DNA from: an uncultured Candidatus Saccharimonas sp.
GTDB lineage: Bacteria > Patescibacteriota > Saccharimonadia > Saccharimonadales > AQU-01
Direction: 5' to 3'
Length of the DNA stretch: 64,000 nt
Assembly: GCA_943358095.1 (NCBI GenBank)
Contig: CALRGT010000001.1
Location: forward strand, 82,842-146,841
The notes under the pieces were generated by a model. That model saw nothing but the letters and a program-made list of their open reading frames with translations, was not told where the DNA came from and made no database searches. A program made the position numbers and the translations under genes. Numbering within the stretch: the stretch's first letter is position 1; each line of letters opens with the position of its first letter. Of this stretch, positions 3,135 through 55,812 are shown in pieces.

Positions 3135-3815
3135 GTGTTAAAAAGGATACTCAAAAAAGTTCGAGCCAATAGTAGGCTAGATTGGCTTTCATATTCGGCT
3201 ATGGCCTTGAGTATATTGTTAATTATTTTTGGATCAGTAGGGCAGGCGGACAAGTACAAAACGACACACAGTACTACAAAGTTACAATCAGTTGTCGAAA
3301 GTCCGACAACTAATACTAGTGAAGCGCCGGTAGATGTAAATGACAAATCTTATATCGTCGCTCCAGACAAACCAAGAGCGCTGATCATGCCAAGTATTGG
3401 AGTTCATGGCTTTGTTCAACAAGTCGGAGAAACTACAGACAGTGCAATAGATGTCCCTAATAACATAAACCTAGCAGGTTGGTACAAAAACAGTGCCAAG
3501 CCAGGCGACGCGGGTCTTAGCATCATTGACGGGCATGTGTCGGGCAAGTATAACCCGGCGATCTTCAAGAACTTACAAAACCTCAAAACAAACGATATCT
3601 TTACCATAGAGTTTGGTGACGGGCATCGCAAAGAGTTCAAGGTTGCGAGCATCGGCAATTTTACATTAAACGACGCCAATCAAGAACTATTTAAGCAAAA
3701 TCCCAAAATAACTAATCAACTAAACCTAGTTACTTGTAGCGGCAAATACGACAATTCTAATCAGTCCTACGACAAGCGCCTAATCGTTGTTGCCCAGCTA
3801 GTATCCTACCTATAG
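3135..3815 (+). CDS. Sortase-family transpeptidase
   Basis: N-terminal TM, catalytic-type His (IDGHVSG), LVTCSG Cys motif and a downstream Arg (KRLIVVAQ). Confidence 0.8.
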   Translation: MLKRILKKVRANSRLDWLSYSAMALSILLIIFGSVGQADKYKTTHSTTKLQSVVESPTTNTSEAPVDVNDKSYIVAPDKPRALIMPSIGVHGFVQQVGETTDSAIDVPNNINLAGWYKNSAKPGDAGLSIIDGHVSGKYNPAIFKNLQNLKTNDIFTIEFGDGHRKEFKVASIGNFTLNDANQELFKQNPKITNQLNLVTCSGKYDNSNQSYDKRLIVVAQLVSYL

Positions 3816-3848
3816 CAGGGGGATGAATAATATATAAAATATCAGTTG

Positions 3849-4340
3849 CTAGACGGCCACTGAAAGCAGTTTCTTAATATCACTTGCTATCTCTGAAGGC
3901 TCAACAGCAGGGGCGTATCGCTTAACGACGACACCGTTTCGATCAACTAAAAATTTCGTAAAGTTCCACTTAATCCTTCCGCCAAACAAGCCAGATTGCT
4001 GCTTCTTTAAATATTTATAGAGCGGGGCAGCCTTGATGCCGTTTACATTAATTTTGGCAAAAGTCTCAAAAGTAACACCGAAATTTACCTGACAAAAACT
4101 AACATTCGCCTCGTCGCTATCTGGTGCTTGATTAGCAAATTGATTGCAAGGGAAGTCCAATATCTCTAGTCCGTCGCTTTGATAATTTTTATAAAGCTCC
4201 TGTAAACCGGCATACTGTGGCGCAAAACCACACTTTGGAGCAGTATTAACTATCAACATAACCTTGCCTTTATATTTATCCAAAGTGACCGTGTCGCCAC
4301 CTACTTGCTTAATCTTGAAATCATAAATTGTCATATTCAC
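3849..4340 (-). CDS. Glutathione peroxidase-family thiol peroxidase
   Basis: NTAPKCGFAPQYAGLQELY and WNFTKFLVDRNG motifs. Confidence 0.85.
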   Translation of the reverse strand: MNMTIYDFKIKQVGGDTVTLDKYKGKVMLIVNTAPKCGFAPQYAGLQELYKNYQSDGLEILDFPCNQFANQAPDSDEANVSFCQVNFGVTFETFAKINVNGIKAAPLYKYLKKQQSGLFGGRIKWNFTKFLVDRNGVVVKRYAPAVEPSEIASDIKKLLSVAV

Positions 4341-4393
4341 CCCTATAATTAGTACCTATACATACTACCTGAATATGGGGAACGTGACTACGC

Positions 4394-5083
4394 TTAAGAT
4401 TTAACTATTGAAGCAAATATGACGGTATTCTTGGTGTAATGTCCTGTTGAACGGTCAAAGGACCCACCACAAGTGATAAGACGCAGGCCGGGGTGGTCGA
4501 TGGCCCCATAAACCTCTTGAGTGCCAAAATTATCTTGGCTGTATTCTTGTAGAGCCTCAACAGCGAAGGTAACGATACTGCCGTCCGCTCTAGTTATGAT
4601 AATTTTATCTTCTGGGAGTAGCTCTTTTAAACGCCAGAAAACTGACTTTGAAGCATAAGTCACAAGATGAGCATCTATCACTGACGGACCGATTTCACCC
4701 GGCGAGGGACCTCCAACGTACCAACCAGCCACCTCACTAAGAACAGGTGGAGTAGCCAGGGAACCGTCAGCTAACAAGCCTACAGGAATCACATCTGTAT
4801 CGACTCCTATTCTAGGAATAACTATGCGAATGGGTTGCGAGCGCGGCATGCCGATAGCGGCAGTAGGCTTGATAGGGGAATAATAAGTGGTCGCGGGCTT
4901 AAGTCTAGGAGTAGATAAAGCGCAGTAACTAAGTAGCAACACATTGGCGATAATTAATACCGCAAATAATCTAAGAATAGACAAAGATGGCCGACCAACC
5001 GCCGACCATCTACTACCAACACTTTTATTTACGATTTTAGTCGCAAATTTTCTTTTGGTTATTGGGCGAATTTTCTTAAACAT
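4394..5083 (-). CDS. Sortase (class F-like)
   Basis: N-terminal TM, VIDAHLV His region, LRLITCGGSFD Cys motif. Confidence 0.8.
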   Translation of the reverse strand: MFKKIRPITKRKFATKIVNKSVGSRWSAVGRPSLSILRLFAVLIIANVLLLSYCALSTPRLKPATTYYSPIKPTAAIGMPRSQPIRIVIPRIGVDTDVIPVGLLADGSLATPPVLSEVAGWYVGGPSPGEIGPSVIDAHLVTYASKSVFWRLKELLPEDKIIITRADGSIVTFAVEALQEYSQDNFGTQEVYGAIDHPGLRLITCGGSFDRSTGHYTKNTVIFASIVKS

Positions 5084-9853: not shown

Positions 9854-9937
9854 CTAGGAGCTCCTCCTAGCTCTATATGGGATCTGTGTGGCTTTTGAAT
9901 TATTTTACTAGTTCACAATTTATGATAAAATTTAAGC

Positions 9938-10702
9938 ATGAGCAAAACAATTACACTTATCGGTTTGAGAAAATTCAATTATTTTATGGCGGCACTCCAC
10001 GGCCTCCAAGCAGTCGCCTTACTGGCATTAAGCAAAAACTTTACTCTGCCTATCAGCGCAGGCTATCTGAGCTGGGACCAGGCAGCCATGAGAGTAGTGC
10101 CACGAAGTACTGTGCTCTTTAACTTGTCGCTGCCATTACTTATCGCCATGTTCCTAATAATATCGTCGGTAGCTCATATCATAATAGCAACCGTATACAA
10201 CAAAACTTATAACGAAAACCTACAGAAGGGCATCAATAAAGCCCGTTGGTTTGAATACTCTATATCAGCAAGCATTATGATGGTTGCGATTGCATTACTA
10301 GTTGGTGTCTACGACCTTACTAGCCTAGTTATGATCTTTAGTCTTACTGCAATCATGAACTTGCTTGGACTTGTCATGGAAATACACAACCAAACAACTA
10401 CTAAGACTAACTGGGTTAGTTATTGGATAGGCTGCCTAGCAGGAATCATACCTTGGTTAGTTATAGCATTTTACTTCTGGTTGTCAGCAAGCAAGGAAAC
10501 AGCTGCACCAGTATTCGTCTACTTTATTTTTGTATCCCTCTTCATCTTCTTTAACTGCTTTGCAATCAACATGGTTTTGCAATACAAGAAGGTCGGCAAG
10601 TGGAGTAATTACCTATATGGTGAACGTGCCTATATCATCCTGAGCCTAGTTGCTAAATCTCTACTAGCATGGCAGGTATTCGGCGGCACACTTCGTCCAT
10701 AA
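9938..10702 (+). CDS. Heliorhodopsin
   Basis: Seven TM helices. Matches HeR hallmarks as I recall them: LHGLQAVALLAL (His), ARWFEYSISASIM (counter-ion Glu), SVAHIII (His), WSNYLYGERAYIILSLVAKSLLAWQVF (Schiff-base Lys). Confidence 0.9.
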   Translation: MSKTITLIGLRKFNYFMAALHGLQAVALLALSKNFTLPISAGYLSWDQAAMRVVPRSTVLFNLSLPLLIAMFLIISSVAHIIIATVYNKTYNENLQKGINKARWFEYSISASIMMVAIALLVGVYDLTSLVMIFSLTAIMNLLGLVMEIHNQTTTKTNWVSYWIGCLAGIIPWLVIAFYFWLSASKETAAPVFVYFIFVSLFIFFNCFAINMVLQYKKVGKWSNYLYGERAYIILSLVAKSLLAWQVFGGTLRP

Positions 10703-10729
10703 TGGTATTTAAAAGCACTTGCACTATGG

Positions 10730-10737
10730 TGTATAAT
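10730..10737 (+). promoter_or_regulatory. -10 element TGTATAAT of the decayed polymerase cassette
   Basis: GGTGTATAATT is identical to the 11-mer at 31031-31041 upstream of the intact cassette. Confidence 0.5.
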
Positions 10738-10977
10738 TAATTCAGCAATGGGAGCATGAACCGCAATCGCGGTCATAGTTCACGAGCTTTATTTTTCAAC
10801 TCTAGGGCGGCATACTCCGGTCACTACCTCACCCTCACATAGCTAAACCTGTAGATATAGTAACCGAACGGTTTTACTTATATCACTTTATCAGGAAGCT
10901 CACATTTAAAACCCGTTCAGCTGAACCAAATGGTCAGTTGTTCTCTTAAAGTCTACTAAATGTGAGGAGCTAGAGTT

Positions 10978-11238
10978 ATGAATCAAACAATCAACAAGCA
11001 AATTTCGGTATTATCTTATTATTTTTCTAGTGGTAACTGTGCGCGTTTCTTCCCAAAAAAAATTGAATTTGAAGGCAGCGAACTAGACCTGATCGAATCT
11101 GGTCTTAGGTGCTTGGTCAAAAAAGGCCAAAGCTTTATTCAGATATTCAACATGAGTGATGGCAACAACGAATACCGTCTAAGCTTTGAGCCAGATAATC
11201 GTGAATGGACTCTTTTAAGCATGAAAGCTCAGGCCTAG
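10978..11238 (+). CDS. Small protein, paralog 1 of a polymerase-associated family
   Basis: By-eye similarity to 31333..31599 (IN..SV..YY.S, P..I, EYRLSF..DN..W.L); SD GAGGAG. Confidence 0.6.
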   Translation: MNQTINKQISVLSYYFSSGNCARFFPKKIEFEGSELDLIESGLRCLVKKGQSFIQIFNMSDGNNEYRLSFEPDNREWTLLSMKAQA

Positions 11239-11241
11239 ACT

Positions 11242-11463
11242 ATGCAACTCACACTACAACTTGCGTCTAACAATAGCTGGGCATTTGCTAAGTACCGTCA
11301 CTATAACTATTCGATCAAACCATCATCTAATAGAAATATAATCATTACTGCTTGTTCGCGTGAGGCAAAATTACTTGGAATTAAAGCAGGTATGCATTAT
11401 GAAAAAGCCAAGACCTTAATTCCAGAAATTAAAATATTCATAATCGGAGGGACCAATGTATGA
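11242..11463 (+). pseudogene. 73-aa N-terminal remnant of a Y-family DNA polymerase
   Basis: NIIITACSREAKLLGIKAGMHYEKAKTLIPEIKIF aligns with GIIIASSYEAKALGIKLGVSVRDARLLCRDVIVM of 31580..32821. The catalytic-Asp block (MHIDLNSCFA) is degenerate (LQLASNNSWA) and the palm, finger and little-finger regions are missing. Confidence 0.6.
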
Positions 11464-11680
11464 CAAATCAAACACCGAATTGGCAGAAGTACTTAGACAC
11501 TACGGTAAAGACTTCCAAGCTTTCAAAATCAAATGGAAAGGCGTCGATTACCACATCTCGAAAATCGCACTTAAACAATCAAAGGGGATCACAACCAATA
11601 ACTTTTGCGTTCTTGAGGCAACTGACGGATTGGCTATTTTTGAAATAGTCACCCATCAACCTTGGCCAAAATTCCACTAA
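11456..11680 (+). CDS. Small protein, paralog 2 of the polymerase-associated family
   Basis: FKIKWKGVDYHISKIA resembles HLIRWQNREYLVGKIG of 31333..31599. The ATG overlaps the upstream stop (ATGTATGA). Confidence 0.5.
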   Translation: MYDKSNTELAEVLRHYGKDFQAFKIKWKGVDYHISKIALKQSKGITTNNFCVLEATDGLAIFEIVTHQPWPKFH

Positions 11681-11737: not shown

Positions 11738-12727
11738 ATGAACCTCTTTTCGAGCCTCAATCAAGCCTCAGTACACGATTATCATGTACCGCTTTTTCTA
11801 TATCTAGCCATGCTGGCCGTACTAGCATTTTACGCAGTTATCGAATTTCGTCATTCAAAACACGATCACGTAATTAAGTTCAAAGAGGCTCTAAAGTGGT
11901 CGTTAATATACATATTTATATCCTTAGCTTTTTCGGTTCTAATATTTTTCTTGATCGGCAAACAAGCAGCCGGTGAATATTTAGCTGCTTGGGGAATAGA
12001 GAAGGCGCTAAGCCTCGACAACTTATTTCTTATAGGATTGATCTTTGCTGGTTTTAATGTCAAGCCAGAATACCAAAGACGAATGCTCAACTACGGCATA
12101 GCTGGTGCAATAATCTTCAGACTTATATTTATATTGGCAGGATTCGAGCTTTTAAGGCGTTTTGAGTGGATAAGTGTTGTCTTTGGGCTAATCTTGCTGA
12201 GAGCATCCTGGAAGGCATACAAAGAGGCTCGTGGTGGCCATGATATTGAAGAAGAATTTGAAGCCTTAGAAGGACCAATATTTCGGCTAATGAATAAAGT
12301 GCTGCCTATTTATCCTAAGTTTGACGGTCACAAACTTACAACAAAAGTGAACGGAAAACGCATGTTAACGATGATGGCTGCAGTGATTATTGTAATAGAG
12401 TTCACGGATGTCATATTGGCTGTGGATAGTGTGCCAGCAGTTCTAGCAGTCAGCCCAGACCGTTTTATAGCCTACTCCAGCAATGTTTTTGCTTTACTAG
12501 GCCTAAGAGCGCTATTTTTTGTCTACGAAGCTGTTGCCGACAAGTTCTGGGCAATTAACTGGGCGCTGTCGGCTATCTTAGGCTGGATTAGCTTTAAAAT
12601 GATAACCGGTCCGTTCGGCCTACATATACCAATATTAATCAATCTTGGCGTTCTGTTTGTATTATTTTTCGGAAGCATGATTATTTCTATCGTATGGCAA
12701 CCCAAGCACAAAAAAGCTAAAGCTTAG
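11738..12727 (+). CDS. TerC-family integral membrane protein
   Basis: IEKALSLDNLFLIGLIF and FTDVILAVDSVPAVLAV motifs; many TM helices. Confidence 0.85.
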   Translation: MNLFSSLNQASVHDYHVPLFLYLAMLAVLAFYAVIEFRHSKHDHVIKFKEALKWSLIYIFISLAFSVLIFFLIGKQAAGEYLAAWGIEKALSLDNLFLIGLIFAGFNVKPEYQRRMLNYGIAGAIIFRLIFILAGFELLRRFEWISVVFGLILLRASWKAYKEARGGHDIEEEFEALEGPIFRLMNKVLPIYPKFDGHKLTTKVNGKRMLTMMAAVIIVIEFTDVILAVDSVPAVLAVSPDRFIAYSSNVFALLGLRALFFVYEAVADKFWAINWALSAILGWISFKMITGPFGLHIPILINLGVLFVLFFGSMIISIVWQPKHKKAKA

Positions 12728-12849: not shown

Positions 12850-13101
12850 ATGTCGAAGATTACAATTTATAGCACTGCAACTTGTGTCTACTGCAAAATG
12901 CTCAAAGACTATCTTACAAAGCATAAAATCAAATACACCGAAAAGCACGTTGACCAAGATCAGAAGTTAGTGCAGGAGCTCATGGATAAGAGTGGGCAAC
13001 TTGGCGTACCATTTACAGTTATCGAAAACGACGACGAAACGTCTAGTACAATTCTAGGATTCGACAAGTCAAAGATCGATCAAATACTCGGTCTGGCATA
13101 A
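12850..13101 (+). CDS. Glutaredoxin/NrdH-like redoxin
   Basis: CVYC active site in KITIYSTATCVYCKMLKDYL; GVPFTVI. Confidence 0.8.
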   Translation: MSKITIYSTATCVYCKMLKDYLTKHKIKYTEKHVDQDQKLVQELMDKSGQLGVPFTVIENDDETSSTILGFDKSKIDQILGLA

Positions 13102-22010: not shown

Positions 22011-23237
22011 ATGGAACCAGACGAAATACAACAAAACGAGAAAACTGCCGAACAAATCAGAAAACAACTGGGCAAGTTATACGGTGAAGAACCCGCTATA
22101 GAGGAAGAGATAGAAGACGTGTCGGACGAAACCGACGACCTCTCTAAGCACCAAAGGTTCGTCTATAAACTTAGTCATTCTGGTAAAAACCCAGAAGACA
22201 TAGAAGCAGCCTGGCACCAATATTACGCAGGATTGTCGGACAATGATAAACATGAGGTTTGGCGAGAGTTTCAGGAAACTTCAAATACTCAAGAATCAGT
22301 CCATAATGAATCTACCGAAATCAACTCTTCCAAACCAAGCCAGAACCACACGAGAGTAATTGACGAGCCTGTCGTAATTCCAAGAAACCAATTTATCCGC
22401 CCGACATATTACGACGAAGAACCACAACCAAAACATTCCCGAAACCGAAGCACAAAAACAGTATCAGAAATCAAAAGACAATTGATAGGGAATATTGAAT
22501 CCAGACAAAAACTAAAACCTAAACAACATTTAAAATCATTAATTTTTGGTCTTTCTGTAGGATCAATATTTGTATTATTGCTGCTTTTTGGATTCTTCAA
22601 CGAACGATTTATCGCACCCTTTATCACGCCTAGTCGTAGCGTCAGTTCAACTCCTATTATTGTCGACGATTCGGGTATAGCAATAAGCAAAGAACCAAAA
22701 ATAATAATCCCGAAAATCAATGTAGAGGCACCGGTTGTTTATGACGAGACATCCATAGAAGAGAAGGTGCTGCAGACGGCTCTACAACGAGGCACAGTGC
22801 ATTATGCCACCACACCTCTACCAGGAGAAAAGGGAAATGTCGTTATTTTTGGACACTCTAGTAGCAACCTACTAAACCAAGGAAAATATAAATACGCCTT
22901 CGTTTTATTAAGCAGAATGTCTATAGGCGATATATTTTACTTAACTAAGGACGGGCAACGTTTTAGCTATAAAATATACGAGAAAAAGATAGTTAGTCCT
23001 ACAGCTGTCGAAGTAATAGGGACAGCCAGCAAGCCTGAAACAGCAACTCTTATAACTTGCGATCCTCCAGGCTCTTCGCTTAATCGGCTAGTCATAATCG
23101 GTGAGCAAATTAGCCCAGATCCAAACCTAAATATCGCTGCCACCACCCAGACAATTACTCCCGCCAAAACAACTCTGCCAACAATACTTCCAAGTAACTC
23201 ACCAACTCTCTGGAGTCGTATAAAGAACTGGTTCTAA
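22011..23237 (+). CDS. Sortase-domain protein with a ~200-aa N-terminal cytoplasmic extension and one TM
   Basis: GNVVIFGHSS (His), ATLITCDPPGS (Cys), NRLVIIGE (Arg); TM LIFGLSVGSIFVLLLLFGFF. Confidence 0.75.
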   Translation: MEPDEIQQNEKTAEQIRKQLGKLYGEEPAIEEEIEDVSDETDDLSKHQRFVYKLSHSGKNPEDIEAAWHQYYAGLSDNDKHEVWREFQETSNTQESVHNESTEINSSKPSQNHTRVIDEPVVIPRNQFIRPTYYDEEPQPKHSRNRSTKTVSEIKRQLIGNIESRQKLKPKQHLKSLIFGLSVGSIFVLLLLFGFFNERFIAPFITPSRSVSSTPIIVDDSGIAISKEPKIIIPKINVEAPVVYDETSIEEKVLQTALQRGTVHYATTPLPGEKGNVVIFGHSSSNLLNQGKYKYAFVLLSRMSIGDIFYLTKDGQRFSYKIYEKKIVSPTAVEVIGTASKPETATLITCDPPGSSLNRLVIIGEQISPDPNLNIAATTQTITPAKTTLPTILPSNSPTLWSRIKNWF

Positions 23238-25911: not shown

Positions 25912-27339
25912 ATGAAGATAACTCGTACCAGATTTGCGCCTAGTCCGACCGGCTTTATGCACGTTGGCGGCGTTCGCACGGCCTTGTTCGCGTGGCTAGT
26001 AGCTAAACAGGCTAACGGTAAGTTTCTGCTTAGACTTGAAGATACCGACAAGAACCGTGAAGTAGCTGGATCGGCCGAACACATCATGGAATCGCTACGA
26101 TGGCTAGGGCTAGAGTGGGACGAAGGCCCCGACATAGGCGGCTCGCACGCACCTTATCTCCAGAGTGAACGACTCGATATATATAAGCAATGGGCAGAGA
26201 AACTAATTGCTAGCGGTCGAGCATACGCTGACCCTTACACAAAAGAAGAGCTTGAGACTTTTCGTGTTGAAGCTCAAAAAAACAAACAACCCTTTTTGTA
26301 CCGTAATCATCGACCAGAAAATCCACCGGTATGGGATGGCAGCCAAGCGTTAAGATTTAAGTCAGATCCAAAAGTTTATCATTGGGAAGACGCTGTGCTG
26401 GGAGACTTATCGGCCGGAGCTGAAGCCGTTGACGACTTCATACTAATAAAATCAGACGGCTACCCAACCTATAATTTCTGTCATATTGTTGACGACGAAC
26501 TCATGGAAATAACTCACGTTATTCGGTCGCAGGAGTTTATCGCATCAGTCCCACGATTTTTAAATCTTTACGATGCCCTTGGTATTGACTGGCCGATATT
26601 TGCTACACTGCCTTATGTTATGGGTGCGGACGGCAAGAAAAAGCTAGGCAAACGCGACGGCGCAAAAGATATTCTCGACTACAGAAAAGATGGCTACCTG
26701 CCGGAAACTATGATTAATTTTCTTGCCACATTGGGCTGGAACGACGGAAGTGAACAAGAAATATTTAGCGTCAAAGAGTTGATAGAGAAATTCTCGCTAG
26801 CAAGAGTACAACGTAGTGGTGCAGCATTCGATGAGCAAAGACTGTTATGGATGAACGGTAGTCATATTAGAGGCATTAGCCTCGATGACCTGTTCGATAG
26901 AACGAAAAATTATTGGCCGGAGCAATCCAATCAAAAAAGCGCTGATTACAAAAAATCTGTTCTTGGTTTAATTCAAGAAAGGCTAAAATATTTCGCTGAA
27001 ATACCCGAGCTAACAAACTTCTTTTTCGAGGACCTACCAATTAATCTTGAGCTAATCACATCTAATAAACAGCTCAAGAAGCTAGATAACCAACAACTCA
27101 AAACTTACCTACAAAAAGCCTTAGAAGTTCTTACCGACTCTGATTTTAGCGTCAATAATTTATCCGATATTCTTAATAATCTTCTAGAAACAACAGGCGA
27201 AAAACCTGGTATATTATTTAGCTTAATAAGAATTGCTACAACTTGGGCGCCAGCATCGCCTGGACTAGCCGACACATTGTCTGTACTCGGAAAAGAAACT
27301 ACACTTCGTCGCATCAGCGCCAGCATATCTAGCATTTAG
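25912..27339 (+). CDS. gltX: Glutamate--tRNA ligase
   Basis: RTRFAPSPTGFMHVGGVRTALF (HIGH region) and KKLGKRDG (KMSKS-like). Confidence 0.92.
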   Translation: MKITRTRFAPSPTGFMHVGGVRTALFAWLVAKQANGKFLLRLEDTDKNREVAGSAEHIMESLRWLGLEWDEGPDIGGSHAPYLQSERLDIYKQWAEKLIASGRAYADPYTKEELETFRVEAQKNKQPFLYRNHRPENPPVWDGSQALRFKSDPKVYHWEDAVLGDLSAGAEAVDDFILIKSDGYPTYNFCHIVDDELMEITHVIRSQEFIASVPRFLNLYDALGIDWPIFATLPYVMGADGKKKLGKRDGAKDILDYRKDGYLPETMINFLATLGWNDGSEQEIFSVKELIEKFSLARVQRSGAAFDEQRLLWMNGSHIRGISLDDLFDRTKNYWPEQSNQKSADYKKSVLGLIQERLKYFAEIPELTNFFFEDLPINLELITSNKQLKKLDNQQLKTYLQKALEVLTDSDFSVNNLSDILNNLLETTGEKPGILFSLIRIATTWAPASPGLADTLSVLGKETTLRRISASISSI

Positions 27340-27446
27340 ATAAATCGCACAGTCTAGCAACGAGCAATAAGCGGCGTTAAGTAGTGTCCTAGTATTTAGC
27401 TTGTGCCTATAGGCAAATAAGCATTAGCACTGTTACAATGTAGTCT

Positions 27447-28793
27447 ATGGATGATATTTCTTGGCCTAAAAACAAACCAAAAACAAAAATTAAATCAAAG
27501 AAAATTCTTACTGTTAGGGGAGCGCCTATTGAGCTCGATCCTTTAGATTTAGATATCAAATCAGAAGAAGCAGTAACCGAATTACAAACAGAGATGCAAC
27601 CTCTAGAGAATAATGCAGACCCCTTAGTTATTGCCGACGCATCGCCAGCCATTGCTGAGCCAAAAACAAGAAGAATATTCTTTAAGCATACCAACATGAC
27701 CAAGAAAAAGTGGGCAATGCTAATTGTCGTGCTTATAGCGCTTATAGCGGCAGGTGTGTATGGAGGCATGAAATTATACAAACACTATACTGCATCACCT
27801 AAAACAAAAACGTCGACCACAAAAACAACCAAGCCAGTTCCACCACCAATTACAACTGGGCCATCGCCATTGACAGGCGCGGAAGTTGATTTGAGCCTAG
27901 TAGGCAGGCCTGTTACAGGCATTATGATAGAGAATAGCTTTGACGCACGTCCACAATCCGGACTAAAAGACGCCGGCATAGTTTACGAAGCTATCGCCGA
28001 GGGAGGAATAACAAGATTCTTAGCCCTTTACCAAGAGGCGCGACCTGACTACATAGGACCAGTCCGCAGCGTACGACCTTACTATCTAGACTTTTTGATG
28101 CCCTTTAACGCTTCCATCGCTCATGTTGGCGGCGCCCCACAAGCCTTGGCAGAGATCAAAACATTCGGCATACATGATCTTGACCAATTCGCTAACGGCA
28201 ACTCCTACACTAGAATCACTCAAAGATTTGCGCCCCACAATGTCTATACCAGCTTTGACAAAATGGACGCACTTAATGCCGCAAAAGGGTTTAAGTATGT
28301 TGCGTTTACATCCTTCCCAAGAAAGAAGGACGCTCCAACTACTCCAAAACCTGCAACAGCGACCACTACCGCGAGCACCGTAGCAGCAACCACACCAATA
28401 CCGATTGTAAACACAATTGACCTAGCAATATCTGGACCGGACTTTAACGCACACTACGACTACGACGCAACCACAAACACCTATAAACGTAGCGAGGGTG
28501 GCGCTAAACATATTGACGAAAAATCGAGTATTCAACTAGCTCCGAAGGTGGTAGTCGCTTTGGTAATGCAGAGGGGGATTGCTACCGACGGTCAACACAC
28601 CGACTACTCAACTACTGGTAGCGGCCGTATGTTTGTGTTTCAAGACGGCACCATTACAGAGGGCACTTGGACGAAATCCGACAGAACGACTCAGTTCGTA
28701 TTTACAAATGCAGCTGGTCAACCACTCAATCTTAATGCCGGTCAAACATGGATCACTTTAGTAGATAAAACTACGAATGTAACCTATAAATAA
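27447..28793 (+). CDS. DUF3048-domain protein (membrane-anchored)
   Basis: DARPQSGLKDAGIVYEAIAEGGITRFLALY and VRSVRPYY motifs. Confidence 0.7.
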   Translation: MDDISWPKNKPKTKIKSKKILTVRGAPIELDPLDLDIKSEEAVTELQTEMQPLENNADPLVIADASPAIAEPKTRRIFFKHTNMTKKKWAMLIVVLIALIAAGVYGGMKLYKHYTASPKTKTSTTKTTKPVPPPITTGPSPLTGAEVDLSLVGRPVTGIMIENSFDARPQSGLKDAGIVYEAIAEGGITRFLALYQEARPDYIGPVRSVRPYYLDFLMPFNASIAHVGGAPQALAEIKTFGIHDLDQFANGNSYTRITQRFAPHNVYTSFDKMDALNAAKGFKYVAFTSFPRKKDAPTTPKPATATTTASTVAATTPIPIVNTIDLAISGPDFNAHYDYDATTNTYKRSEGGAKHIDEKSSIQLAPKVVVALVMQRGIATDGQHTDYSTTGSGRMFVFQDGTITEGTWTKSDRTTQFVFTNAAGQPLNLNAGQTWITLVDKTTNVTYK

Positions 28794-28801
28794 GCAACAA
28801 A

Positions 28802-30328
28802 ATGAAGTACTTTAAAAGTTTTAAGCGTGGGGTTCAGCTACACTTAGGACTGATTTTACTGATCAATAATCTTTTACTTGTAGCTATATATATAGTTGGG
28901 GCGCAGCTATTAGATCTGCCGTCTTCGATGCTAGCTATTATCCTTGCAGCTACCGCACTATTGTCGATGTTAATAATCACATTTGTATCGACAAACTATC
29001 TTAGTAAACCTATGGATACAATTGGCCGTGCTGTTAACTATGTTTCTCCAGACAAATCTGACTATGCCGCACCAGTTCTTGATGATCTAAGATTAGGGCG
29101 AGAGCTAGTCGCAGAACTTAGCAGGGAAGTTTACTCCATTGCAAGTAGCGTAAAAAACAGTCCCTTAATTAGTTCGGCACCAAACGAAAACGTGTTGATG
29201 AATAGTTTATCAATCCCGATAATTATGATGGATAAATCTCAGAAGATTACATTTATAAATACCGCAGCAAGTAATTTTATTGGCAAGGCAGCTACAGAAA
29301 TAATTAATAAAAATATGTATGACGTTTTTGATTTTTCATTTTCTAGTGACGACACATATGATTCCTGGCTGAATCAAACGCGGACGAACAGCGCTGTGGC
29401 TAGCAAATCATGGAGCCACGTAAGACTGCCATTAGCTGACCCGACAGGGCTCAAACAAATAGACATGACCGCTAGCTATAGTCTTGACAGTGCAACAGGC
29501 ACAGAAGTTACACTGACCTTATACGATAGGACACTAGACTATAGCAAGGATGATGCATCGATAAGTTTTGTGGCAATCGCCGTTCATGAGCTACGCAACC
29601 CAGTAACTCTACTTCGTGGTTATATAGACGTATTCGAAGAAGAACTTTCTGGCAAACTAAATGTTGAACTGGCTGACTTTATGATAAAAATGCAGGTAGC
29701 AGCTGGGCAATTATCGACATTCATAAATAATATCCTAAATGTGTCGCGCGTAGAAAACGATAAATTATCTTTAGAACTTAGTGAGCAAAAATGGCCAGAC
29801 ATAATACAGGGCGCGATTAATGGCATCAGTATGCGTGCAAAAGTACACAACAAGATTATTGAATTTGTAGCGCCTACTAATCTTCCGACAGTAGGGGTGG
29901 ATAGCGTTAGTATCTATGAGGTTCTAAGCAACCTGCTTGATAACGCAATAAAATATAGTGGCGACAACGCTGGCAAAATAGTGGTCAGCACGTTATTAAC
30001 CAAGGACGGTCTAGTTGAAACAAAGATTCAAGATTTTGGTGTAGGTATTTCGTCGAATGTTTTACCAAAACTCTTTGAGAAATTTTACCGCAACCATCGC
30101 ACACAAACTTCGGTCGGCGGGACAGGACTAGGACTATTTCTTAGCAAAGCAATAGTTAACGCTCATGGCGGCAACATCTGGGTAGACTCCAAGGAAGGTC
30201 AGGGATCGACATTTGGTTTCACAGTACTGCCGTATGTTATGGTTGCAAATAAATTAAAGCCCGGCAATGATGGCATAACCCGTAATGCACATGGGTGGAT
30301 CAAAAATCACTCACTTTATAGGCGATAG
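28802..30328 (+). CDS. Sensor histidine kinase (2 TM, PAS-like, HisKA, HATPase_c)
   Basis: H-box FVAIAVHELRNPVT; N-box LLDNAIKYS; G-boxes QDFGVGI and GGTGLGL. Confidence 0.85.
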   Translation: MKYFKSFKRGVQLHLGLILLINNLLLVAIYIVGAQLLDLPSSMLAIILAATALLSMLIITFVSTNYLSKPMDTIGRAVNYVSPDKSDYAAPVLDDLRLGRELVAELSREVYSIASSVKNSPLISSAPNENVLMNSLSIPIIMMDKSQKITFINTAASNFIGKAATEIINKNMYDVFDFSFSSDDTYDSWLNQTRTNSAVASKSWSHVRLPLADPTGLKQIDMTASYSLDSATGTEVTLTLYDRTLDYSKDDASISFVAIAVHELRNPVTLLRGYIDVFEEELSGKLNVELADFMIKMQVAAGQLSTFINNILNVSRVENDKLSLELSEQKWPDIIQGAINGISMRAKVHNKIIEFVAPTNLPTVGVDSVSIYEVLSNLLDNAIKYSGDNAGKIVVSTLLTKDGLVETKIQDFGVGISSNVLPKLFEKFYRNHRTQTSVGGTGLGLFLSKAIVNAHGGNIWVDSKEGQGSTFGFTVLPYVMVANKLKPGNDGITRNAHGWIKNHSLYRR

Positions 30329-30343
30329 ACAACTTATGAATGA

Positions 30344-30763
30344 ATGCTTAAATCTGCTAAAATACCTCTAATGGATACAGCTACCGATAACACCAAAACT
30401 GTACGCAAAGTCCTCTGCGTTGAAGACGAATTCTTTATTAGCGAGCTATACTCGCGCGCCCTTACAAGAGGAGGTTACCAAGTTGAAGTCGTGACAGATG
30501 GACTAAAGGGACTAGCTATGGCTATGACCAACGACTACGACATAATCTTGCTCGATATTATGGTGCCGAACATGACTGGCATAGACATACTCAGACATCT
30601 TAGAGAAGAAAAGGCCGATTTGCGGGCGAAAATTATTATCACGACGAATTTAGACCAGGGTAAAGAGAACCGCACAGATATAGAGAAACACGCTGACGGA
30701 TACATAATCAAAGCCGAGATCACTCCAAGGCAACTTGTTGAATTTTTAGATAACATCAAGTAG
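30344..30763 (+). CDS. Single-domain response regulator (CheY-like receiver)
   Basis: VLCVEDE, DIILLDIMVPNMTG, IIITT and ADGYIIKA motifs. Confidence 0.85.
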   Translation: MLKSAKIPLMDTATDNTKTVRKVLCVEDEFFISELYSRALTRGGYQVEVVTDGLKGLAMAMTNDYDIILLDIMVPNMTGIDILRHLREEKADLRAKIIITTNLDQGKENRTDIEKHADGYIIKAEITPRQLVEFLDNIK

Positions 30764-30772
30764 ATTATTTTT

Positions 30773-30795
30773 GTCCCCTGAAGGGGACTTTTTTT
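30773..30795 (+). terminator. Intrinsic terminator after the response regulator
   Basis: GTCCCC-TGAA-GGGGAC followed by seven T. Confidence 0.8.
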
Positions 30796-30797
30796 AT

Positions 30798-31016
30798 GCC
30801 ACTTTTGTCTCGGCAAAAGATGGCGCAAAACCGAGGGGCGGTGGCGACAACTCGATATAGCTTCCGAACAAGAAGCACAACACAGCCTGCGGAACTTGTC
30901 CTATCGGACTTCAGACAGTCCTCGGCAGGTAGTGTTGTTGTGCTCTTATCGGAAATCTATTTCGGGTCGTCACCAAGCCCCGTAAAAGACCATGGATGCC
31001 CGCTTAAGGCGGGCAT
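30798..31016 (+). ncRNA. Candidate structured RNA: 5' hairpin (30798-30824), long imperfect rod (30831-30983), 3' hairpin (30996-31016)
   Basis: Arms 30831-30889 and 30924-30983 pair almost continuously (GGGGC/GCCCC, GGTG/CACC, GCGAC/GTCGT, TTCCGA/TCGGAA, GCACAACA/TGTTGTGC, CCTGC/GCAGG). The 76-aa ORF here is probably spurious. Confidence 0.45.
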
Positions 31017-31032
31017 TAATTATTAACTTAGG

Positions 31033-31040
31033 TGTATAAT
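31033..31040 (+). promoter_or_regulatory. -10 element TGTATAAT of the Y-family polymerase cassette
   Basis: GGTGTATAATT directly after the 30996-31016 hairpin; the identical 11-mer occurs at 10727-10737. Confidence 0.5.
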
Positions 31041-31332
31041 TGGGTTAGTTATGTGAGTACTTTCATTCACGTGGATTTTTACTCGCAGGCTTTATTAGAT
31101 AGAGAGGCATACTCACTGAACGCCAAATGGCTTCACGTCACTGCTAACCTCAAACACATCTCGTTCAACTGACGCAGCAAGGGCTTTTGCGCTACTTCTG
31201 GTCACACGGATAATTTAAACAATACAGTTTAAATGTCCTCTTTATTATTTGTTTTTAATACATTTTCGGGCACCAAAAATACCTACAAAACACCGTAAAC
31301 TATTCTACTTAATCCTTGAAAGGATCTTAATT

Positions 31333-31599
31333 ATGCGCGAGAAAATCAACGAAGAAGTATCTGTAATTATGTACTATAGCTCGACTAAACGCCTGGCTGT
31401 GCCGCATTTAATCCGCTGGCAAAACCGCGAATATCTGGTCGGCAAGATCGGCTACCACCACACTGTTATGGAAGGCCGAGTACTGCACCACATCTACGAA
31501 TTAGCCGATAAAAATCAAGCTCTGTGGTTTAGATTGAACCTCGATACGAGTAATTTGCACTGGAGACTGGAGGCAGTTAGTGATGGAAACGCCAATTAA
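31333..31599 (+). CDS. Small protein, paralog 3 of the polymerase-associated family (88 aa)
   Basis: ATG preceded by AAAGGA. The 3' end overlaps the polymerase start by 20 nt. The ORF-track start at 31249 (TTG) is probably an over-extension. Confidence 0.6.
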   Translation: MREKINEEVSVIMYYSSTKRLAVPHLIRWQNREYLVGKIGYHHTVMEGRVLHHIYELADKNQALWFRLNLDTSNLHWRLEAVSDGNAN

Positions 31600-32821
31600 C
31601 TACAACCCGCCTATGATGATGCACATCGACCTAAACTCCTGTTTTGCCATAATCGAACAGCAGGCCAACCCTTTAATTCGCAACAAACCAGTAGCGATTG
31701 CGGCCTACGACACGCCCAGGGGTATCATAATCGCTTCTAGCTACGAAGCCAAAGCTTTGGGCATAAAACTTGGCGTTAGCGTTCGTGACGCTCGCTTGTT
31801 GTGCAGGGACGTCATAGTGATGACACCCGACCCAGAAAAATACTTTGATGCACATCGTCGATTCAAGCGAGTATTACAAAACTACACGGACTCGGTAACG
31901 CCAAAATCAGTTGACGAATTTGTTATCGATTTCCGCGGCTCACCAGCAGTAAAGCGAGGCAAAAGTTTGCAAGAAATCGGTTTTGAAATTAAAAGCGACA
32001 TCAAGCAGGCTATCGGTGAATATGTAACGGTTAATGTCGGAATTGGACCTAACCGCTTTTTAGCCAAATTAGCAGCTGGCTTAAATAAACCTGACGGCCT
32101 GGACACTATTAATGGCGATAATCTGCGCGAAACCTACGCAAAACTTCAACTCATCGATTTGCCAGGAATTAACACTCGCTACAGTGCTAGACTAAATGCC
32201 GCCAATATTTACACGCCAATACAGTTTCTTGACGCACCCATGCCACTACTCAAGAAAAGGGTATTCAAAAGTGTCGTTGGATTCTATTGGTATTTGCGGT
32301 TGCGAGGACATGAGATTGATCAGGTTGACTTTGGCCGCAAAAGCTTTGGCCAACAATATGCGCTAGGCGACAAAACTTCTGATCCAGAACAATTATCACG
32401 CCTACTAATGAAGCTCTGTGAAAAAGCTGGCCGGCGTCTACGAAAGGGTGGCTACGTGGCTGGCGGAATACATCTTTGGTTGAATTTCGAGAACCGCACA
32501 TACTACGCTCAAGGCAAAAAACTACATAGAGACATCTACTCAACTCAGGATATTTATTTGGCAGCTCAAAGAATTTTAAGCAACGTCTCTATTCCGGCTC
32601 GCGTCACCAATATTGGCGTCACCGTCATCGACTTACACCCTAGCAATCCTGAACAACTAGGGCTATTCGACGACAGCCGACTAGACACCCGCAGTCTGGC
32701 TCGAGCAGCCGACTTAATCAACGATCGCTACGGCGAGTTCACGCTAGTGCCAGCCATTATGGCTAATATGCAAGACACTGTTTTGAAGCGAGTAGCTTTT
32801 GGTAGCATCCGCGACCTATAG
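31580..32821 (+). CDS. Y-family (translesion) DNA polymerase, DinB/UmuC-like
   Basis: MHIDLNSCFAIIEQ, SYEAKALGIK, SVDEFVIDF, VNVGIGPNRFLAKLAAGLNKPDG and LPGIN motifs. Confidence 0.88.
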   Translation: MMETPINYNPPMMMHIDLNSCFAIIEQQANPLIRNKPVAIAAYDTPRGIIIASSYEAKALGIKLGVSVRDARLLCRDVIVMTPDPEKYFDAHRRFKRVLQNYTDSVTPKSVDEFVIDFRGSPAVKRGKSLQEIGFEIKSDIKQAIGEYVTVNVGIGPNRFLAKLAAGLNKPDGLDTINGDNLRETYAKLQLIDLPGINTRYSARLNAANIYTPIQFLDAPMPLLKKRVFKSVVGFYWYLRLRGHEIDQVDFGRKSFGQQYALGDKTSDPEQLSRLLMKLCEKAGRRLRKGGYVAGGIHLWLNFENRTYYAQGKKLHRDIYSTQDIYLAAQRILSNVSIPARVTNIGVTVIDLHPSNPEQLGLFDDSRLDTRSLARAADLINDRYGEFTLVPAIMANMQDTVLKRVAFGSIRDL

Positions 32822-54033: not shown

Positions 54034-55812
54034 CTATTGCCCTTTTGGTGTTACGCCAAAATTATCAATTAACATATTTGTTACATTGGAGAATATTGGG
54101 GCGGCAGCACGGGCACCAGCATAACCAGATATTTTTGGCTCATTAACACGCACTACTATAACGTACTGAGGCTTGTCCCCTCCAACAAATCCCGTAAACA
54201 TACCATTGAATTTATCGTCATAATAGCCACCTTCGGGCTTATGAATTTGTGCAGTACCAGTTTTTCCTCCAACGCCGTATTGAGTTCTTAGCACTGGCAT
54301 GCCATAAATATTGTGGTTTTTCTCGACCGTGTATTCCATTAGGTTCTGGATGATTCTTGATACTTCTGGCTTGACTACATCAGACCTAATCTTTTCTGAT
54401 TTCTTTGCTGTGAATACACCCGCTCCATCTGTTAAACCATCAACCAACCTTGGCTTATAATAACTGCCACCATTTAACACACTTGATATTGCAGCTGCTA
54501 ATTGCAAAGGAGTCATGGTAACTCCTTGCCCAAAAGCCGTGTTAGCATATTGAAGATTAAGACCAAAACCTTTAATTGGATCGGGCACCACTCCTTCAGA
54601 CTCGTAACCCTGCTCTATGCCCGTCAACCTGCCAAAACGATAATGATCAGCCATATAATCATGCCAAACAGTACGTGCCTTGATATTGATTTCTCCTCCG
54701 CCCATTTGCATTAACAACCAAGTAGCTCCTGTGTTTAGTGACAACTGGAGGATATCCGAAACGCTTCTTACTCCAGCCCCACCATCCTCTTCTATATTAG
54801 TAATCTTATAACCGTCAATATTGTAAAAACTTGGGTCATTGTATGTTGAATCTTTGCTTACTACCCCTTTGTCTAGTGCAGCAGCGGCAGTTAGCACCTT
54901 CATAACCGACCCAACCTCTAAAGGCGAGCTTACAGAATCGTTATTAAAAACGTTACCATCCTCAACCTTAAAGTATTCTGCAGGATTATAGGACGGAAAA
55001 TTTGCCATAGCTTTTATTGCACCATTATTCGGATCCATGACTATCACACTTCCAGACTTAGATTTAGCAGCATCTAATCCTGCTTTAAGTATATCCTCAA
55101 CTTGTTTTTGCATAGAAATATCCAGTGTCAGCAGTACTCTTTTACCTATTTTTGGCTCGGTAATAATATTGTCAGTATTTGTAACTAACGGCACTCCCTG
55201 AGCGTCAGTAATCGCCTTTAGCTCTCCTGGCACTCCCTTAAGATCATTTCCAAGAGCCTGCTCTATTCCATACTTGCCCTCACCATCTTCATTTACAAAT
55301 CCTAATAATTGGGCGGCTAGCTGTCCCTGAGGATATGTCCTATAAGACTCATCCCTTAGACCGATACCTTTATAATCAAGTTTAGATATTTTATCCTTTT
55401 GTTCTTTAGATAACTTTTTGGCTAATACTGAATACCTAGTCTTAAGCTTCATCTTCGTAACATAATCGTTAGCATTGCCTCCGATGATTTGCTGCAGTGC
55501 TATTCCTACCGAGTCGTGATTTGTAATAAATTTTGGATCTGCAAATAATGTAAATTTTGTCTCATTGAGCACTATGGGAATAGTATTTTTGCCTTCATGA
55601 GCAGAAATTATGCCTCTTTCAGCCTTAATCTCGTATTCCTTAAGTTGACCCTGTAAAGCTACCTTTTTATAATAGTCGTGTTTGATAATTTGTAGAAAGA
55701 AAAGCCTGATTATAAATACACCCATCACTAGCAGCAGAACGGCATACCAAAAACGAATACGTATAGTCGTAGACCTTATGTCGCTAGATATTTGCTTATG
55801 AGGTAACCGCAT
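54034..55812 (-). CDS. ftsI: Penicillin-binding protein 2x/FtsI-type transpeptidase
   Basis: N-terminal TM, dimerisation domain, SxxK (GSVMKVLTAAAAL), SLN, KTGTAQ. Confidence 0.88.
   Translation of the reverse strand: MRLPHKQISSDIRSTTIRIRFWYAVLLLVMGVFIIRLFFLQIIKHDYYKKVALQGQLKEYEIKAERGIISAHEGKNTIPIVLNETKFTLFADPKFITNHDSVGIALQQIIGGNANDYVTKMKLKTRYSVLAKKLSKEQKDKISKLDYKGIGLRDESYRTYPQGQLAAQLLGFVNEDGEGKYGIEQALGNDLKGVPGELKAITDAQGVPLVTNTDNIITEPKIGKRVLLTLDISMQKQVEDILKAGLDAAKSKSGSVIVMDPNNGAIKAMANFPSYNPAEYFKVEDGNVFNNDSVSSPLEVGSVMKVLTAAAALDKGVVSKDSTYNDPSFYNIDGYKITNIEEDGGAGVRSVSDILQLSLNTGATWLLMQMGGGEINIKARTVWHDYMADHYRFGRLTGIEQGYESEGVVPDPIKGFGLNLQYANTAFGQGVTMTPLQLAAAISSVLNGGSYYKPRLVDGLTDGAGVFTAKKSEKIRSDVVKPEVSRIIQNLMEYTVEKNHNIYGMPVLRTQYGVGGKTGTAQIHKPEGGYYDDKFNGMFTGFVGGDKPQYVIVVRVNEPKISGYAGARAAAPIFSNVTNMLIDNFGVTPKGQ

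Follow-up and report, generated by a model that had tools for sequence, protein, structure and literature searches.

Eighty heliorhodopsins have been reported from Saccharimonadia, SLVAK being one of the retinal motifs seen most often (Chiriac 2022, PMC9166423), and among heliorhodopsins of solved structure the nearest to the protein considered here is TaHeR from the Thermoplasmatales archaeon SG8-52-1 (PDB codes 6is6 and 7u55). Published neighbourhoods have linked the family to several kinds of partner. TfHeR of Trichococcus flocculiformis regulates a photolyase (Shim 2022, PMC9769723), a connection that an initial annotation of the present locus, made from the DNA sequence alone, had rightly pointed out. 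Of the neighbours reported beside heliorhodopsins glutaredoxin is the most frequent, and genes with glutaredoxin or glutathione-peroxidase domains adjoin them (n=31), leading to a proposed role in mitigating oxidative stress (Bulzu 2021, PMC8612252); TerC is one of ten frequent operon partners (Kim 2024, PMC11109279). Here we describe the heliorhodopsin gene at positions 9938 to 10702 of a 64-kb stretch of contig CALRGT010000001.1 from an uncultured Candidatus Saccharimonas sp. (the whole stretch is referred to below as the window), along with the unit that follows it directly: a structured RNA leader, a gene for an 86-residue protein (o86) and a short gene (mini-IMS) related to part of the Y-family DNA polymerases.

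The open reading frame (ORF) is a genuine, intact heliorhodopsin under purifying selection. It covers the whole of Pfam profile PF18761 (Heliorhodopsin; positions 1-242 of 242) with 330.1 bits against a cut-off of 26.7 (E=9.1e-99), and reaches 334.4 bits with the NCBIfam HeR equivalog NF038020, for which the cut-off is 100. The top solved structure is TaHeR 6is6 (E=4.5e-82, 278 bits), with 57% identity over 242 aligned residues, while the remaining crystallised heliorhodopsins yield no more than 199 bits. Their alignment pairs H21 (in ALHGL) with TaHeR H23, H80 (VAHII) with H82, and the counter-ion E106 with E108 in a segment, RWFEYSIS, that is identical in the two proteins; the Schiff-base motif S236-L-V-A-K240 (SLVAKS) aligns with the SLVAK of TaHeR (SxxxK), K240 corresponding to K238. 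In the family, a conserved histidine pair (H23 and H80/H82) sits close to the Schiff base, whose lysine belongs to helix 7, and the single glutamate counter-ion in helix 3 is numbered E107 in 48C12 and E108 in TaHeR (Pushkarev 2018; Shihoya 2019).

The likeness to TaHeR extends along the chain, which is collinear over residues 9-254, carries the same His/His/Glu/Lys set and is identical in the C-terminal SLVAKS..AWQVF..GTLRP motif. Unlike TaHeR, the window protein has a bacterial (Saccharibacteria) host, shows a four-residue insertion in the loop at about 183-189 and is known from sequence alone. The hydrophobic segments in a hydropathy scan would accommodate seven helices; homology, together with a basic N-terminus (K3, R11 and K12), points to the inverted topology in which the N-terminus would lie in the cytoplasm. 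The start codon is correctly placed, since homologues are likewise 254 residues long and align with the query over 100% of its length. Comparison with four conspecific metagenome contigs shows 33-40 synonymous and 4-6 non-synonymous differences, and the resulting dN/dS of 0.03-0.04 indicates that the gene is not decaying. The initial annotation, which had called the gene intact from its hallmark residues, was thus right on this point.

As a member of its family the protein holds no surprise. NCBI, ENA and Logan already contain its exact sequence, which lies there on a 190-kb contig, and its mates in a 90%-identity cluster, MCX6724947.1 and MEI7522129.1, are entered at NCBI as 'heliorhodopsin HeR [Candidatus Saccharibacteria bacterium]'. 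Compared with these and with the other heliorhodopsins of Saccharimonadia and the Candidate Phyla Radiation (CPR) (Chiriac 2022, PMC9166423), it shows the same taxon, the same 254-residue length and the same SLVAK, with no substantive difference: it is one more ortholog in a catalogued group and is already known. By itself it adds little, and it makes the open question of heliorhodopsin function no easier to test.

The reading that we favour, with a probability of about 0.82, is that of a functional, stand-alone Saccharibacteria heliorhodopsin which acts as a light sensor and has no functional coupling to the downstream module. The protein would be an inverted seven-helix membrane protein bearing all-trans-retinal on K240 and using E106 as its counter-ion. 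Judged from its homology with TaHeR, it would run a slow photocycle without ion pumping, and it may then modulate one or more partners, not encoded nearby, via protein-protein contact. Retinal binding, its scavenging, the sensor mechanism and leaderless transcription (below) are all features that we infer. A scan of about 50 ORFs of the window revealed no blh, no crt or other carotenoid enzyme, no type-1 rhodopsin and no photolyase, and there was no photolyase domain in the scanned window ORFs of at least 400 residues, a set that left out the 592-residue ORF 54034..55812. Since blh was likewise not found in rhodopsin-bearing Saccharibacteria, in a study that also showed external retinal to be taken up rapidly (Jaffe 2022), the retinal is probably scavenged from the host or the environment. 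As to the physiological output, protection against photo-oxidative stress is our best guess, and a weak one, suggested by the proposal of Bulzu 2021 and by three redox genes, for MsrA, thioredoxin reductase and glutaredoxin, that turn up repeatedly around Patescibacteria heliorhodopsins.

The gene appears, from its sequence, to form its own transcription unit. The -10 element of a promoter-like site upstream (Table 1) ends 6 nt before the ATG and a Shine-Dalgarno sequence is absent, and for these two reasons the heliorhodopsin mRNA is probably leaderless, with a start site predicted close to the ATG. Four related loci (L004, L012, L023 and L077) likewise have a -10-like box, in most cases resembling TGCTATAAT, at a distance of 5-7 nt from the heliorhodopsin ATG, and no Shine-Dalgarno motif was found before the ATG at any of the four. 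Across all loci a -10-like hexamer occurs within 20 nt upstream of the start in 34 of 77.

Whether such genes keep particular company was assessed in the 80 best genome loci, whose heliorhodopsins are 54-74% identical to that of the window and come mostly from metagenome-assembled genomes of Saccharibacteria and other Patescibacteria, with flanks of up to 10 kb per side. Y-family polymerases were sought among the called ORFs with Dpo4 and then with the window's own DinB-like protein, using phmmer and tblastn; none was present at any of the 80 loci. The immediate neighbours of 79 heliorhodopsins comprise 148 proteins with hits to 138 different Pfam families, headed by sortase with only five occurrences, and neither the IMS nor the photolyase family is among the 25 commonest. 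When the flanks of the 79 loci were clustered all against all, the commonest family was an ABC ATPase, found at 25 loci in scattered positions, followed by an FtsX/MacB permease and a PD-(D/E)XK nuclease at 15 loci each, the nuclease lying in a block with SerRS, HPF and SecA. Thioredoxin reductase and NUDIX (nine loci each), MsrA, cupin and sortase (eight each) and RmuC (five) are rarer still, and glutaredoxin occurs near the heliorhodopsin at three related loci besides the window. Patescibacteria heliorhodopsins have no conserved genomic partner. Published neighbourhood surveys (Bulzu 2021; Kim 2024) do not mention polymerases, and no Y-family polymerase is among the operon groups of Kim 2024. 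As neither a conserved partner nor an association with translesion polymerases exists in Patescibacteria, guilt-by-association drawn from single loci is to be distrusted. That sortase ranks first is probably due simply to the large number of sortases that these genomes encode. Three sortase-domain genes are present in the window (3135-5083; 22011-23237).

The leader/o86 unit is similarly uncommon beside heliorhodopsins, being found near them at two of the 80 loci: in L077 an o86-like gene lies immediately downstream of the heliorhodopsin with a partial leader, and in L012 a leader and an o86-like gene lie 6 kb downstream. Conversely, the five other o86 lineages for which upstream flank is available (L081, L084, L087, L092 and L097) have no heliorhodopsin there. 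Two of them, L081 and L084, are syntenic with the window on the downstream side, with ExoD, a methyltransferase and Nramp in both and glutaredoxin and DUF427 in L084, so that the module belongs with the ExoD-methyltransferase-Nramp block and not with the heliorhodopsin. Among pairs of loci with 55-75% identical heliorhodopsins, 1.4-1.5% share an immediately adjacent family; on that background the o86 shared by the window and L077, whose heliorhodopsins are 63% identical, is no more than residual synteny would give. The juxtaposition is most probably lineage-specific and without functional meaning. The suggestion in the initial annotation of a light- or UV-related link to translesion synthesis, for which it had recommended looking for repair genes in heliorhodopsin neighbourhoods, accordingly goes unsupported and fails the test that the annotation itself had set: these loci show no Y-family polymerase and, among the commonest neighbour families, no IMS or photolyase domain.

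Table 1. Features of the heliorhodopsin locus and of the second, polymerase-bearing cassette (window coordinates)
Feature	Position	Strand	Remarks
Heliorhodopsin promoter-like site	9904..9931	+	TTTACT-16-TAAAAT, TG before -10; from consensus scan
Heliorhodopsin coding sequence (CDS)	9938..10702	+	254 aa, ATG..TAA; key residues H21, H80, E106, S236, K240
TATAAT box	10732..10737	+	TTTAAA-18-TATAAT promoter-like match, 10/12 positions; head of downstream unit
Structured RNA leader	10742..10955	+	about 215 nt, covarying; outside heliorhodopsin gene
o86	10978..11238	+	86-aa all-beta protein, uncharacterised family
mini-IMS	11242..11463	+	73 aa; PF00817 E=1.3e-5, profile positions 30-64 of 148
Third ORF, o74	11456..11680	+	or overlapping 62-aa frame 11460..11648; gene status uncertain
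TerC-family membrane protein	11738..12727	+	PF03741 E=2.6e-41
Glutaredoxin	12850..13101	+	PF00462 E=1.2e-14
Second leader copy, divergent	31045..31250	+	R1 43.1 bits, E=5.4e-11; nhmmer matches 5' half
o86 paralogue	31333..31599	+	88 aa; 28% identity to o86, E about 1e-9; directly upstream of polymerase
DinB-like Y-family DNA polymerase	31580..32821	+	413 aa, intact; IMS E=2.1e-32, IMS_C E=7.7e-17

The module downstream of the heliorhodopsin is the most interesting item of the locus, its leader being apparently undescribed. It begins with a TATAAT box whose distance from the heliorhodopsin stop codon agrees with the roughly 30 bp given in the initial annotation, and which is present in nearly all of 15 aligned upstream regions of o86-family genes. 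The unit is autonomous, box and leader being conserved before o86-family genes both with and without a heliorhodopsin nearby. The hexamer TTGCAC (10719-10724) was considered as a -35 element and rejected, as it lies 7 nt from the -10. The leader that follows consists of helices P1/P1a and P2, a P4-P5 domain, and a hairpin at 10918-10940 that resembles a terminator and has a U-rich tail, after which come a ribosome-binding site and the o86 ATG at 10978. A loop with the sequence GAACGG (10866-10871) can pair with CCGUUC (10913-10918) in a putative pseudoknot, supported by one compensatory U-A change.

Several measurements agree on this architecture. RNAalifold returns helices with compensatory changes, and in the alignment behind covariance model R1, built from 13 sequences, 32 of 47 pairs show such changes. 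Pairing is maintained in 77% of cells, compared with 67% in shuffles, none of 500 shuffles reaching the observed values; the covariation score is 0.29, compared with 0.06-0.13 in slid controls. When 14 divergent leaders were folded singly with the GAACGG loop held open, all formed the same P4-P5 domain and the hairpin with its U-rich tail. Searched against 1.46 Mb on both strands, R1 scores 160 bits at the window leader and all its matches lie upstream of o86-family genes; the leader is also found at L012:16628-16854 and in L081, L084, L087 and L092-L100. Among strains, the 275-bp gap between heliorhodopsin and o86 is 96-98% identical at the nucleotide level, whereas the coding sequences on either side of it, heliorhodopsin and o86, reach 94-95%. 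Rfam assigns neither leader copy of the window to a family, the best permissive match (COG3860 RNA, 14 bits; gathering score 42.5) being at chance level, and the literature searched for RNA motifs associated with umuC contained nothing relevant. From its sequence the leader looks like a candidate new cis-regulatory RNA, either of riboswitch or attenuator type or a target of o86 itself, and the module may be how Saccharibacteria regulate mutagenic polymerases.

Proteins of the o86 family are about 80-100 residues long, with 26 close homologues in a word-indexed search and 298 representative clusters in a profile search; a profile scan of metagenomes yielded 13 loci, four of them from the window's own species. 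The leader always lies upstream of o86-family genes and Y-family polymerase genes often lie downstream. Neither o86 and the third ORF, o74, nor their relatives match a family in Pfam or NCBIfam at permissive E-values. The AlphaFold model of o86 is a confidently predicted seven-strand, all-beta structure (pLDDT 89.7), for which a Foldseek comparison with the PDB gave nothing better than E=0.4. Among strains, o86 shows no non-synonymous and 12-16 synonymous changes.

The next gene, mini-IMS, spans only the N-terminal stretch of a Y-family polymerase around ACSREAKxLGIKAGMRY; with neither a complete IMS core nor IMS_C, it is not a full polymerase. It had been regarded in the initial annotation as a translesion-polymerase remnant. 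However, homologues of about 70-110 residues follow o86 at no fewer than ten loci in several lineages (for instance L081:6261-6473, L084:6290-6622, L087:6400-6651 and L092:6136-6363), its dN/dS among strains is 0.04-0.08, and NCBI calls it as a gene (NTX80_00140). Mini-IMS, which always follows o86, is therefore no random remnant: it is short, yet conserved as a gene and kept by purifying selection.

At loci L087, L093, L097 and L098, o86, with or without mini-IMS, is followed by UmuD (an S24 peptidase) and a full UmuC; in L094 UmuD follows o86 and the contig then ends. In the window TerC follows instead of UmuD and UmuC, so the o86 cassette is not a umuDC operon. A relative of the L087 UmuD was not found in the window, and the L087 UmuC has a weak match at the DinB-like gene only. 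To speak of a DNA-damage-tolerance cassette, as had been done, is hence apt as to its kind, o86 and mini-IMS preceding umuDC elsewhere; in the window, however, the cassette comprises o86 and mini-IMS alone, and it has been maintained, not left to decay.

Were the heliorhodopsin coupled to this module, light would serve as a proxy for UV and tune damage tolerance via read-through or protein contact. A heliorhodopsin signal that pre-arms translesion synthesis in a genome-reduced episymbiont would make a light-responsive damage-tolerance unit and, if true, a new output class for heliorhodopsins; we consider both the coupling and such a unit very unlikely. The heliorhodopsin gene does lie immediately upstream on the same strand, and the order heliorhodopsin-leader-o86 is conserved in four conspecific contigs (L088-L091) and recurs in L077 and, at 6 kb, in L012, but neither of these two has mini-IMS or a polymerase beside o86. 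The placing of o86 and mini-IMS ahead of umuDC in other Saccharibacteria speaks for coupling, yet five other o86 lineages have no heliorhodopsin upstream, and the window's intact polymerase, 21 kb from the heliorhodopsin gene, has a leader and an o86 paralogue of its own. TfHeR and its photolyase (Shim 2022, PMC9769723) provide a conceptual precedent, both cases involving a heliorhodopsin and the idea of a light sensor that aids the handling of DNA damage. Unlike that pair, the window heliorhodopsin is flanked by DUF4342 and o86 and not by a photolyase in an operon, its neighbours, a transcription unit of their own, are connected with damage tolerance (Y-family), and no photolyase was found in the window. 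Against coupling stand, too, the zero of 80 loci with a Y-family polymerase, the two of 80 with the unit, a figure at the level of background synteny, and the silence of the published surveys on polymerases; the module is, moreover, headed by a separate, conserved promoter-like box and by a leader that brings along a terminator-like element. The small chance that we leave for real coupling stems from the gap of 275 bp between the heliorhodopsin stop and o86: no intrinsic terminator was detected there ahead of the leader, and read-through from the heliorhodopsin into the downstream unit is consequently possible.

That missing terminator and the conserved gene order weigh against the stand-alone light sensor, as do some further points. 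The heliorhodopsins of the window, L077 and L012 all fall in one clade of 24 of the 79, and the recurrence in L077 and L012 could reflect weak selection for linkage and not chance. The survey drew on the 80 closest loci, mostly from Patescibacteria, and its count of Y-family genes stands without a formal background frequency; the scan for retinal and photolyase genes covered 64 kb of the genome. The sensor mechanism and its partner are extrapolated from other heliorhodopsins, through homology with TaHeR and through the published regulatory examples. A different possibility, that TerC and/or glutaredoxin are the relevant partners and the o86 module an interloper, we judge unlikely. Both genes are on the same strand within 2.2 kb and both are published heliorhodopsin neighbours (Kim 2024, PMC11109279; Bulzu 2021, PMC8612252), and around Patescibacteria heliorhodopsins one repeatedly meets MsrA, thioredoxin reductase and glutaredoxin; these redox neighbours, however, occur at fewer than 12% of related loci, in a count uncorrected for shared ancestry. 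TerC begins 1,035 bp after the heliorhodopsin stop, with three ORFs and the promoter-like box with its leader in between, and because this complete unit intervenes both TerC and glutaredoxin are outside the heliorhodopsin operon. It seems to us extremely unlikely that the window protein works as a light-gated proton transporter or channel instead of as a sensor or regulator. TaHeR, by a wide margin its closest characterised relative (278 bits, the others at most 199), reportedly showed no ion transport (Shihoya 2019), which counts against a transporter. Some viral heliorhodopsins are cited in the literature as moving protons, and CPR bacteria have few ways to build a proton gradient (Jaffe 2022), but pumping in Saccharibacteria is assigned to separate type-1 rhodopsins (Chiriac 2022, PMC9166423; Jaffe 2022). 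The stand-alone light sensor thus remains the reading that we prefer.

The operon groups of Kim 2024 invite a closer comparison with the neighbouring genes. In common with those groups, a TerC gene is found in the window, about 1 kb downstream, and ABC-transporter genes are the commonest in the flanks of related loci; unlike them, the window TerC is outside the operon, and the ABC genes are scattered, with permeases of the MacB/FtsX type. TerC was rejected as a true partner on the ground that tblastn finds no TerC relative in the flanks of the 80 related loci. The glutaredoxin, for its part, heads a Grx-DUF427-ExoD-methyltransferase-Nramp block that is syntenic in L084, where there is no heliorhodopsin, and it consequently belongs to a different conserved block.

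Between mini-IMS and TerC, both alternative frames of the third ORF are open in all five strains, with a dN/dS of 0.3-0.55 each. The start of the 62-residue frame weakly resembles a short ORF located after mini-IMS at L084 and L081. We had considered o74 as a possible second o86-like domain but discarded this, BLASTP giving no alignment. At L077:11177-13814 and L012:16872-20314 a divergent o86-like gene and leader adjoin a P-type ATPase of about 775 residues, with no polymerase partner; o86 and its leader are therefore not bound to the company of translesion-synthesis genes.

The second cassette of the window, with its divergent leader, carries an o86 paralogue that appears in public collections as a hypothetical protein. 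Its DinB-like polymerase scores up to 201 bits with NCBIfam DNA polymerase IV models, and is matched by Dpo4 in phmmer with E=3.3e-26. A block of GluRS, DUF3048, a PAS/histidine kinase and a response regulator precedes the polymerase cassette both here (25912-32821) and at L087:880-8512. After this shared block the two diverge, L087 continuing with leader, o86, mini-IMS, UmuD and UmuC and the window with leader, o86 paralogue and the DinB-like gene. Different lineages have evidently swapped the polymerase cassette at this conserved site, and its control might involve the neighbouring two-component system.

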